Below, in pieces: positions 975-1,440 of a stretch of DNA of 64,000 nucleotides; within the stretch, counting starts at the first letter, position 1; each line of letters opens with the position of its first letter. The stretch is from the NCBI RefSeq assembly GCF_044324785.1, contig NZ_CP172127.1; one strand, written 5' to 3'. This stretch comes from Escherichia coli (GTDB taxonomy: Bacteria > Pseudomonadota > Gammaproteobacteria > Enterobacterales > Enterobacteriaceae). A program made the translations under genes and the position numbers. The notes below the pieces were generated by a model. That model was not told the DNA's origin and did not search any database. It was given only the letters and a program-made list of their open reading frames with translations.

Positions 975-1440
975 TGTCCCCAAATAATTTTGGTGAAAAC
1001 CAATCAATAAACCATTTATCAATAGGTAAGTACCGGAAATTATTCCAGTAGAATATTTTCAGGCGATTGCCTATTAATAAATACATTATTGATAGATAAG
1101 TGCCTTCTGTGATTTGCCCGCAAATCACAGAAGATGAAAACCTATCAATACGGGATATTTTCACGGAAATACCAATTAATACTCCAGAATATCTCCTGAC
1201 CATATACTCTGAAACCTGTAAGAACTGCATCAGATATTGAGAGACCATATAGATATAAGTGTGAAATTATTTTGTTTCCAATGATTTCAGGCGAAAACCT
1301 ATCAATGCATCTGTTTTCAATAGGCAGCCACCTTCCGTGATTAACATGTTAATCACGGAAGGTGAAAAGCTATCAATAATCGATATTTTCACGGAATTAC
1401 CACTTAATACATCCCAAAAAATGCGCCATAAAATACCGGG
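975..1440. repeat. iteron-like array: ~8 copies of TATCAATA-containing repeats plus two ~90-bp modules, each with a perfect palindrome (1108..1137; 1332..1363) followed by TGAAAA(C/G)CTATCAATA and ATATTTTCACGGAA
   Basis: direct reading of repeated motifs and palindromes in AT-rich DNA immediately downstream of the integrase. Confidence 0.6.

Follow-up and report, generated by a model that had tools for sequence, protein, structure and literature searches.

The relaxase MpsA of the genomic island SGI1 is atypical in that it resembles a tyrosine recombinase (PMC6414798), and the Pfam family PF12835 serves as a signature for MpsA-type 'INT_DTR-like' proteins (PMC10484663). A 2026 preprint unites MpsA, TcpM and MobK as MOB_M, describes these as the commonest relaxases in chromosomes (96% near an integrase gene), and takes as candidate transfer origins (oriT) the first intergenic region upstream of each relaxase gene, called the most usual oriT location. 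SGI1 also contains two 22-bp inverted-repeat mimics of the partition site parS, placed inside 31-bp direct repeats, which bind the ParB protein of its IncC helper (PMC10954446). EnrR, also island-encoded, binds AT-rich palindromes (consensus AATAAATNATTTATT) and antagonizes or displaces H-NS (PMC9023278). Here we describe a repeat array at positions 975-1440 of a 64,000-nucleotide stretch of Escherichia coli DNA (contig NZ_CP172127.1; hereafter the window), situated between a P4-type integrase gene (int) and a convergent PF12835 gene of a tRNA-Asn island. With a probability of roughly 35%, we regard the array as a putative operator-like nucleoprotein platform.

Structure of the repeat array

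The array differs from its surroundings in base composition: the GC content is 0.29-0.38 across 800-1500 versus 0.55-0.60 in the flanking genes, in agreement with a preliminary description of the locus as AT-rich. The following elements were distinguished within it and, in the case of P3, further to the right.

966-992, unstranded: P0, quasi-palindrome AAAATATTTG-TCCC-CAAATAATTTT (alignments)
992-1024, plus strand: half core GGTGAAAACCAATCAATA, then a second TTATCAATA box (17-mer, profile and box searches; profile half copy 992-1015)
1031-1095, unstranded: second quasi-palindrome CCGGAAATTATTC-CAGTA-GAATATTTTCAGG, then an inverted CTATTAATA / TATTGATAG pair around AATAAATACATTATT (inverted repeats, box positions)
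1104-1133, unstranded: P1, perfect palindrome CTTCTGTGATTTGC-CC-GCAAATCACAGAAG, 14-bp arms, 2-nt gap (palindrome scan)
1133-1182, plus strand: core 1, GATGAAAACCTATCAATACGGGATATTTTCACGGAAATACCAATTAATAC (nhmmer E = 4e-17; 5 of 49 columns variable)
1183-1289, unstranded: inter-module spacer with a degenerate CTGCATCAG (1226-1234) and a degenerate P0-like dyad (1264-1289) (direct repeats, anchor matches, alignment)
1290-1324, plus strand: half core 2, GGCGAAAACCTATCAATG (profile half copy 1290-1307), then TTTTCAATAGG (17-mer, profile)
1329-1364, unstranded: P2, perfect palindrome CACCTTCCGTGATTAACA|TGTTAATCACGGAAGGTG, 18-bp arms, no gap (palindrome scan)
1361-1410, plus strand: core 2, GGTGAAAAGCTATCAATAATCGATATTTTCACGGAATTACCACTTAATAC (nhmmer E = 2.3e-17)
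2006-2026, unstranded: P3, third GTGATT..AATCAC dyad, AGTGATTAC-AGG-GTAATCACT, 9-bp arms, 3-nt gap (motif, palindrome and promoter scans)

Two perfect palindromes with arms of 13-14 bp had been reported. Both are indeed perfect and P1 has 14-bp arms, but P2 is larger than described. Perfect palindromes with arms of at least 12 bp occur only three times in the 64 kb, and two of these are P1 and P2 (the other is at 61144-61167); two palindromes with arms of at least 10 bp were obtained in 0 of 500 shuffles of 940-1440. Weaker dyads are present at 966-992, 1031-1060 and 1264-1289. P0 is perfect in relatives, where it takes two alternative forms (..TTCAC-TG-GTGAA.. and ..TTTGG-CC-CCAAA..). Inverted CTATYAATA boxes are found on the outer flanks of P1 and P2, and each module is therefore a symmetric element of roughly 65 bp.

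P1 and P2 are each followed by a 50-bp core with the structure TGAAAA-CTATCAATA-N3/4-GATATTTTCACGGAA-TACCAMTTAATAC, of which a profile finds two full and two half copies; the predicted modules of a palindrome followed by conserved boxes are thus real, with counts far above chance. Four matches to the 17-mer GTGAAAACCTATCAATA (up to three mismatches) were found versus 0.17 expected, all within the array and on one strand. On a larger scale, 1052-1182 and 1280-1410 form a direct repeat (73% identity, 228-bp spacing). The count of at least eight short repeats holds for copies of CTATCAATA with one mismatch, 8 of whose 23 window matches are inside 1001-1378, but the exact TATCAATA occurs only four times in the array (eight times in the whole window versus two expected). 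Boxes resembling CTATCAATA start at 1001, 1016, 1071, 1087 (minus strand), 1142, 1299 and 1370, with an irregular spacing of 15-125 bp, and no tandem period was detected in the array by TRF.

The earlier statement that the region holds no convincing open reading frame (ORF) is in substance right. Long minus-strand frames do exist (77-104 codons in the window, 63-104 in many variants), and PGAP calls a hypothetical protein of 99 amino acids (aa) over the array in one strain, O145:H28. Substitutions in these frames lack codon periodicity: in a comparison of 14 orthologous arrays, 0.20, 0.17 and 0.20 of the sites vary at the three codon positions (p = 0.69). In relatives the frames are also disrupted by the loss of entire modules and by indels (14, 8 and 1 bp). 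The PGAP-annotated ORF has no PHROG or NCBIfam match, and Rfam 15 yielded nothing for the array at the gathering threshold and only chance snoRNA/miRNA matches at E up to 10. Judged by its pattern of substitutions and indels, the array is non-coding. On the minus strand of 964-1500, one frame is open for about 180 codons save a single stop, despite 35% GC; this scarcity of stops may follow from repeat units whose combined length is a multiple of three.

Distribution and variation of the array

The boundaries of the array, and of the island that carries it, are set by the following features.

29-850, plus strand: P4-type tyrosine integrase gene, 3' part (ORF, RefSeq annotation; a frameshifted pseudogene in the identical strain N3)
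883-912, unstranded: bidirectional terminator-like hairpin ending int, left boundary of the array (terminator scan, inverted repeat)
1466-1720, unstranded: ancestral C/T-rich block with CTGCRCCAG motifs, right boundary of the array (common to Salmonella and Klebsiella)
9956-9971, plus strand: attR-type direct repeat of the tRNA-Asn 3' end, right end of the island (repeat search)

The window is part of an E. coli chromosome. Its positions 850-1800 match the chromosomes of strain N3 and of many further E. coli strains with 100% identity, and related copies (80-95% identity) were identified in 461-519 of 5,426 complete E. coli genomes, exclusively on chromosomes, and the array was found on none of the plasmids of these genomes; about 8-10% of complete E. 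coli genomes carry it. P2 is present in 398 E. coli genomes, only at this locus and only on chromosomes. The arrangement of int, array and minus-strand 'integrase' gene recurs at several tRNA-Asn genes and at tRNA-Asp, with varying cargo (Rhs, type VI secretion system (T6SS), or major facilitator superfamily (MFS)/HypF genes).

Outside E. coli, a pattern scan with TCAATANNNNATATTTTCACGG over one genome per species (100,044 species) revealed the core only in Escherichia whittamii, the other nine matches being due to chance. About 25 of 113 metagenome matches are real, and all represent the same int-proximal, E. coli-type locus. It had been proposed to look for the array in plasmids and satellite phages; searches of plasmid and phage collections (PLSDB and a phage set) with the 1.3-kb spacer and with single modules, at E up to 10, did not find it there. 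The sole meaningful match covers 78 bp of the older conserved block in one Salmonella record, and the single-module searches gave a few short matches at chance level (E about 3-4). Across the collections searched, the array is restricted to Escherichia.

Sister islands of Salmonella and Klebsiella possess the same gene pair, separated by a spacer of 193-241 bp without an array. In this spacer the int terminator hairpin is joined directly to the C/T-rich TGCRCCAG block that corresponds to window 1466-1720. Accordingly, the array represents an expansion specific to one lineage that was inserted between these two elements and, since homologous islands do without it, is not a core function of the island family.

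Copy number varies from half a module to more than two, and many strains have two modules plus extra units. Loci L005 and L006 contain one module, and L007, a minimal aspV-type unit, one dyad and one core. The E. whittamii module is a chimera of P1 joined to core 2, which implies unequal crossing-over. The degenerate CTGCATCAG at 1226 indicates that the duplicated unit once extended to the CTGCACCAG motif. The array was probably built by tandem duplication of a unit of about 70-230 bp; judged by the degenerate CTGCATCAG and the P0-like dyad in the spacer, the duplicated unit measures about 230-300 bp.

Variability was compared in the array alignment of 14 two-module variants. Variable columns amount to 6/66 in palindromes P1 and P2 and 14/95 in the cores, versus 105/392 in the rest of the array (Fisher p = 0.0016 and 0.016, respectively). 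With 2 of 30 columns variable in P1, the dyads match the int terminator hairpin in stability (883-912; also 2/30), a hairpin that is kept in Salmonella and Klebsiella (L009, L013). Identity of the whole array to relatives (75-96%) is similar to that of other non-coding segments. All variants, the minimal L007 unit included, have the same boxes in an unchanged order and orientation. Several changes within the dyads are compensated: three pairs of P1 are altered in L006, each on both arms, a G:C pair of P2 has become A:T in L058, and the centre of P2 in L005 has changed from AACATGTT to AACGCGTT, i.e. from AT to GC; both the L058 and the L005 types of P2 keep their symmetry. From these comparisons, the array is locally constrained, variable in copy number and partly decaying.

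A putative protein-binding platform

The regulatory or protein-binding function suggested in the preliminary description is consistent with these results, as dyads and same-strand boxes would suit it and are also the least variable parts of the array. A possible binding protein is encoded on the same element.

3713-3901, minus strand: Ner/EnrR-family helix-turn-helix (HTH) gene, candidate array binder (profile and protein comparison)

The intact 84-aa homologue of this gene product matches Mu Ner (E = 1.4e-24) and EnrR (E = 2.8e-21) and shares 59% identity with D108 Ner. The EnrR consensus, with up to two mismatches, has only two matches in the window, both in the array (1006 and 1076, the latter covering 1076-1090). 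The array contains six half-sites of the form TTCYGTGAWW, versus an expectation of 1.1 for the entire 64 kb. Their arrangement is fixed, each module having an inverted pair inside its palindrome and a third copy 36 bp beyond. Three GTGATT-N6-9-AATCAC dyads were found in the window versus 0.03 expected, all in 1109-2025 and one abutting a -10-like hexamer. In phage D108 the dyad CCGTGAGCTAC-N8-GTAGCTCACGG, checked for presence and position only, lies directly upstream of ner and is presumably the Ner operator; CCGTGA/TCACGG is common to this dyad and the P2 arms. The D108 c-ner intergenic region (L145, 865-975) additionally contains GTGATTTCAATAGAG and ATCACTATTGATTT, which resemble the GTGATT, TTTTCAATAGG and TATTGATAG sequences of the array. 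Resemblances to CRP, PurR, ArgR and Fur sites, XerD arms and IS5 ends, noticed by eye only, were dropped as short or wrongly spaced.

The proposed platform would be an Escherichia-specific cis-element, inserted between the integrase terminator and the older block in the 3' spacer of two convergent genes. Each unit would combine a long dyad with the same-strand boxes TGAAAA-CTATCAATA, GATATTTTCACGGAA and TTAATAC, and small dimeric HTH or nucleoid-associated proteins would occupy both. H-NS prefers DNA in the GC range of the array (0.29-0.38), and the most plausible binders would be the island Ner/EnrR-family protein in competition with host H-NS on the AT-rich DNA. Such binding would set the chromatin and transcription state around the 3' ends of int and the relaxase-like PF12835 gene, including minus-strand transcripts that pass through the array. 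Our observations cover the anatomy of the array, its non-coding status and distribution, its differing copy number, dyads and cores that vary less than the rest, and a Ner-family gene in cis; from these we infer that a protein binds, which protein this would be and what its binding would control.

Several observations speak against such a platform. The CCGTGA hexamers are 12 bp apart in the array versus 18 bp in D108, the base-contacting R47 of EnrR is not conserved in the island protein (as read from the alignment), and the inner 8 bp of P1 and P2 differ although each is symmetric, which simple half-site recognition does not explain. Dyads upstream of the ner-like operon (4664-4690) are AT-rich and unlike P1 and P2; in four genera the dyads at this operon have 8-bp arms and the same AT-rich, dissimilar character. 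A search for motifs common to the array and the ner-like promoter region gave no significant local alignment (p about 0.07), and blastn-short between the two returned only chance-sized words. Islands of Salmonella, Klebsiella and Lonsdalea carry the Ner-like gene, the PF12835 gene and EFASI (see below) without an array, so that no shared island protein needs it. P2 itself is not uniform: of its 398 occurrences, 126 have the form seen in the window, 84 are one base off and 187 two bases off, and the variants in L002 and L019 break the symmetry. At quasipalindromes, template switching can transfer a change between the arms in the absence of selection, and the compensated changes alone therefore do not prove function. 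Finally, most islands of this family are decayed, their int and/or PF12835 genes being pseudogenes.

Part of this evidence fits the alternative that the array is vestigial, functionless DNA, i.e. an AT-rich tandem duplication in a decaying island whose symmetry stems from template switching rather than from selection. The absence of the array from sister islands in other genera, its shifting copy number and the chimeric E. whittamii module, its divergence at the level of other non-coding segments, the many int and PF12835 pseudogenes and the deviation of P2 by one or two bases in 271/398 carriers (68%), in some with loss of symmetry, all point in this direction. The significantly lower variability of palindromes and cores, as stable as the int terminator, argues against it, as do the fixed order and orientation of the boxes down to the L007 unit and the persistence of the array at tRNA-Asp and several tRNA-Asn sites in some 8-10% of complete E. 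coli genomes. We consider this explanation doubtful, but deserving of serious weight.

A candidate relaxase gene and the EFASI element

Two further features of the island bear on how the array might function.

2215-2795, minus strand: PF12835/PF12834 'integrase domain' gene, MpsA/MOB_M-like (Pfam; frameshifted here, intact with 294 aa in L002)
2851-2978, minus strand: EFASI element, directly upstream of the PF12835 gene (Rfam, 100.8 bits)

The 294-aa protein of L002 matches the Pfam families Integrase_1 (PF12835, E = 3.9e-59) and Phage_int_SAM_2 (PF12834). Its homologues, with 34-50% identity, are encoded on Pantoea and Klebsiella plasmids and on small plasmids of Burkholderiaceae and Thiothrix. 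The 'second integrase' of the island is a candidate MOB_M (MpsA-like) relaxase, and the island itself is most readily interpreted as a decayed integrative mobilizable element.

EFASI was found 55-110 bp upstream of the PF12835 gene in every relative checked, including those of Salmonella, Klebsiella and Lonsdalea (the PF12835/EFASI relatives are L002, L005, L007, L009, L011, L012, L013, L015 and L143). On a Klebsiella plasmid, EFASI precedes the PF12835 gene and STAXI lies further upstream. The array differs from a MOB_M oriT in both position and co-occurrence: it is downstream of the relaxase gene and is absent from the Salmonella, Klebsiella and Lonsdalea islands that have this gene. EFASI, and not the array, occupies the usual oriT position or that of the SGI1 sgm-sRNA, and may serve these relaxases as oriT or correspond to that RNA.

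A second alternative, which we hold to be unlikely, is that the array is a hairpin element acting as a single strand, either in transferred DNA (in priming or as an accessory) or in a minus-strand transcript (in stability or processing). P0, P1 and P2 differ in sequence, yet each is fully Watson-Crick symmetric, including the inner 'spacer' bases, and the single-stranded DNA fold has a z-score of -6.9. As the neighbouring gene belongs to the MpsA/MOB_M family, the island is probably transferred as single-stranded DNA. In the RNA version, a transcript would start at a promoter near 1793-1765 and stop at the terminator (912-883), and the region is indeed bracketed by a minus-strand promoter match (10/12) and the bidirectional terminator. 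Against this stand the gaps of 0-2 nt, which leave inner pairs that cannot close a loop, the lack of a U-tract after the stems and the lack of an Rfam family match. The placement of known MOB_M oriTs upstream of the relaxase gene, where EFASI is found in every relative, and the missing array in islands of other genera with the same relaxase gene count against it as well.

More speculatively, the array could be a functional element that is specific to Escherichia and was added to a mobilizable island of the MOB_M type, its dyads and boxes recruiting a trans-acting factor that controls excision, circle maintenance or transfer. This factor could be the island Ner/EnrR-type anti-silencer or a protein of a helper element. 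We rate this variant as quite unlikely.

Replication, partition and attachment sites

The organization of the array had suggested a replication origin or a partition site. Superficially it resembles crr of phage P4, being AT-rich with short same-strand repeats and two large direct repeats; the degenerate type-I octamer of P4, TNTTCACC, accommodates TTTTCACC; and the two parS mimics of SGI1, an MpsA-type island (PMC10954446), set a precedent for an array that imitates helper iterons or parS. AT-richness is, however, the sole mark of a vegetative replication origin (oriV) that the array shows. The island annotation contains no Rep, primase or Par gene. No DnaA box (TTWTNCACA) was found in 851-8881 and no match to the integration host factor (IHF) consensus WATCAANNNNTTR in the array. 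The helically phased, regular direct repeats of 17-22 bp that mark iteron-type origins are missing from the array, where box spacing is irregular and no TRF period was detected. The octamer TNTTCACC is not clustered (14 in the window versus 8.6 expected, two of them inside the array) and P4 crr is on the attP side of int rather than downstream of it, so the likeness to P4 iterons was discarded. With neither initiator gene, DnaA box, IHF consensus nor regular phasing, a replication origin is not supported. As for partition, no dyad recurring on a partner replicon and no cis-encoded ParB/ParA was found, short diverged mimics being possible. No copy of the array, P1 or P2 was seen on the plasmids and phages searched or elsewhere in E. 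coli genomes, and therefore no helper with matching sites is visible. On these features the array is hardly a replication origin, and an origin or centromere function in the wider sense, helper mimicry included, is very unlikely.

The preliminary description had set the array apart from att arm sites, and rightly so. The att repeats are the tRNA-Asn 3' end and 9956-9971. The attL core, at the tRNA-Asn 3' end, is about 160 bp upstream of the int start; the array starts about 1.5 kb from this core, with the whole int gene in between. Tandem islands or an internal att site were also considered and rejected, there being no copy of the tRNA-Asn 3' repeat near the array.

The least probable explanation, to which we give hardly any credence, is a decayed protein-coding gene with internal repeats or a tandem remnant of miniature inverted-repeat transposable elements or insertion sequences: minus-strand frames persist in many variants despite 35% GC, one of them annotated in O145:H28, and each palindrome is like two abutted terminal inverted repeats (GGAAGGTG presumably matches the start of the IS5 inverted repeat, a resemblance by eye that was dropped), but substitutions show no codon-position bias, indels and module losses break the frames, the annotated ORF has no family match, and the 5,426 E. 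coli genomes hold no dispersed copies, so that nothing suggests transposition.

Gene content of the island

In strain N3 the gene order is tRNA-Asn, the frameshifted P4-type integrase gene, an unannotated gap, minus-strand genes (a frameshifted 'phage integrase N-terminal domain' gene, an HTH gene and a hypothetical gene) and an Rhs core gene. An intact homologue of the integrase matches NCBIfam PRK09692 and the PHROG integrase. A 16-bp direct repeat, CCAGTCAGAGGAGCCA, is present at the tRNA-Asn 3' end and again at window positions 9956-9971; both att repeats are thus preserved and the island measures about 11 kb. Past its right end follow core genes such as yeeN, amn and shiA. Annotated island genes are int, the PF12835 'integrase' gene, the Ner-like HTH gene, two hypothetical genes and genes for Rhs and tetratricopeptide repeat (TPR) proteins; the cargo in window 1-9971 is limited to the Rhs core protein and the TPR protein. 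Related islands at tRNA-Asn and tRNA-Asp share this backbone, which is followed by T6SS, MFS/HypF or defence genes (DarTG, Lit-like, PIN-TPR).

The C/T-rich block 1466-1720 is also GC-rich; its minus strand is G/A-rich with AAGGG repeats, and it comes directly after the stop codon of the relaxase-like gene. It is conserved from E. coli to Salmonella and Klebsiella and looks like a non-coding RNA or a DNA site, with no Rfam match. A small basic ORF in the block is open in Salmonella and Klebsiella; its frame is lost in E. coli, and the block was therefore treated as non-coding. The 9-mer CTGCRCCAG occurs 12 times in the window versus 1.06 expected, with ten copies within 1466-3484. These are plus-oriented at 1466, 1495, 1688, 2131, 2325 and 2844 and minus-oriented at 3126, 3153, 3288 and 3476, forming inverted sets on either side of the relaxase-like gene and EFASI; the motif is also present in the short Salmonella and Klebsiella spacers.

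In the stretch 2006-2195, P3 abuts TATAAT (plus strand) / TATTAT (minus strand), and a plus-strand terminator-like hairpin follows at 2171-2185. These features could delimit a small transcript (about 150 nt) oriented convergently to the relaxase-like gene. Relatives have a 33-bp hairpin insertion within this stretch.

A C4 antisense RNA (62 bits) and its a1/b1 target, which also matches isrK, were identified on the minus strand of 4413-4598. They precede an operon composed of a gene for a 153-aa hypothetical protein and the ner-like gene, an arrangement that resembles the immI-type control module of P1/P7. Some relatives carry an additional Ash-family gene and a HigA gene.

In itself the array is of modest importance, as a narrow-range, variable and partly decaying non-coding element. 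Should it be a binding platform, it would add a further case of island AT-rich DNA managed by H-NS and a Ner/EnrR-type antagonist; were it a functional add-on, it would represent a new kind of cis-acting hitch-hiking or control module without plasmid or phage sequence relatives. The evidence against an origin spares a cloning experiment on the wrong fragment. The context is the more useful result: a candidate MOB_M relaxase gene lies beside the array, with EFASI always just upstream of that gene. The tRNA-Asn/tRNA-Asp islands, with their Rhs toxins, T6SS and defence genes, may thereby be recast as mobilizable elements, for which EFASI is suggested as the transfer origin or the SGI1 sgm-sRNA counterpart.

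Comparison with known systems

The P4 crr/ori region shares with the array its linkage to a P4-type integrase gene and the presence of two large direct repeats with several short repeats in both orientations. In P4, however, each of the two 120-bp repeats contains five octamers (TGTTCACC and variants), whereas octamers are not clustered in the array. P4 crr lies beyond attP and starts with a DnaA box, while the array is downstream of int and has none. P4 also encodes the alpha primase-helicase, which binds type-I octamers; no alpha homologue is annotated on the island, and crr shows no blastn homology to the array.

Like the array, the known MOB_M oriTs (125 bp in SGI1, 186 bp in pIGRK, and that of pCW3) are non-coding regions with several inverted and direct repeats, no more than 5 kb away from a tyrosine-recombinase-like relaxase gene. 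They are upstream of this gene and GC-rich or G-rich, in contrast to the downstream, AT-rich array. An oriT would also be expected to accompany the relaxase gene, but most islands with this gene lack the array and have EFASI upstream instead.

Direct repeats DR1 and DR2 of SGI1 come closer in general design, as two dyads in direct repeats within non-coding, island-specific DNA of an MpsA-type mobilizable island. The SGI1 sites copy helper-plasmid sites that recur 7-14 times, whereas no matching plasmid, phage or other E. coli site was found for the array, and the array dyads are longer than the parS mimics and unlike each other.

In comparison with known Ner and EnrR operators, the arms of the array palindromes (14-18 bp) are unusual in being symmetric over their full length. 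The array is also about 2.3 kb from the ner-like gene and downstream of two convergent genes, not at the promoter beside ner. What the array has in common with Ner-family systems is a small HTH protein encoded in cis on the mobile element and dyad targets, which for EnrR are likewise AT-rich.

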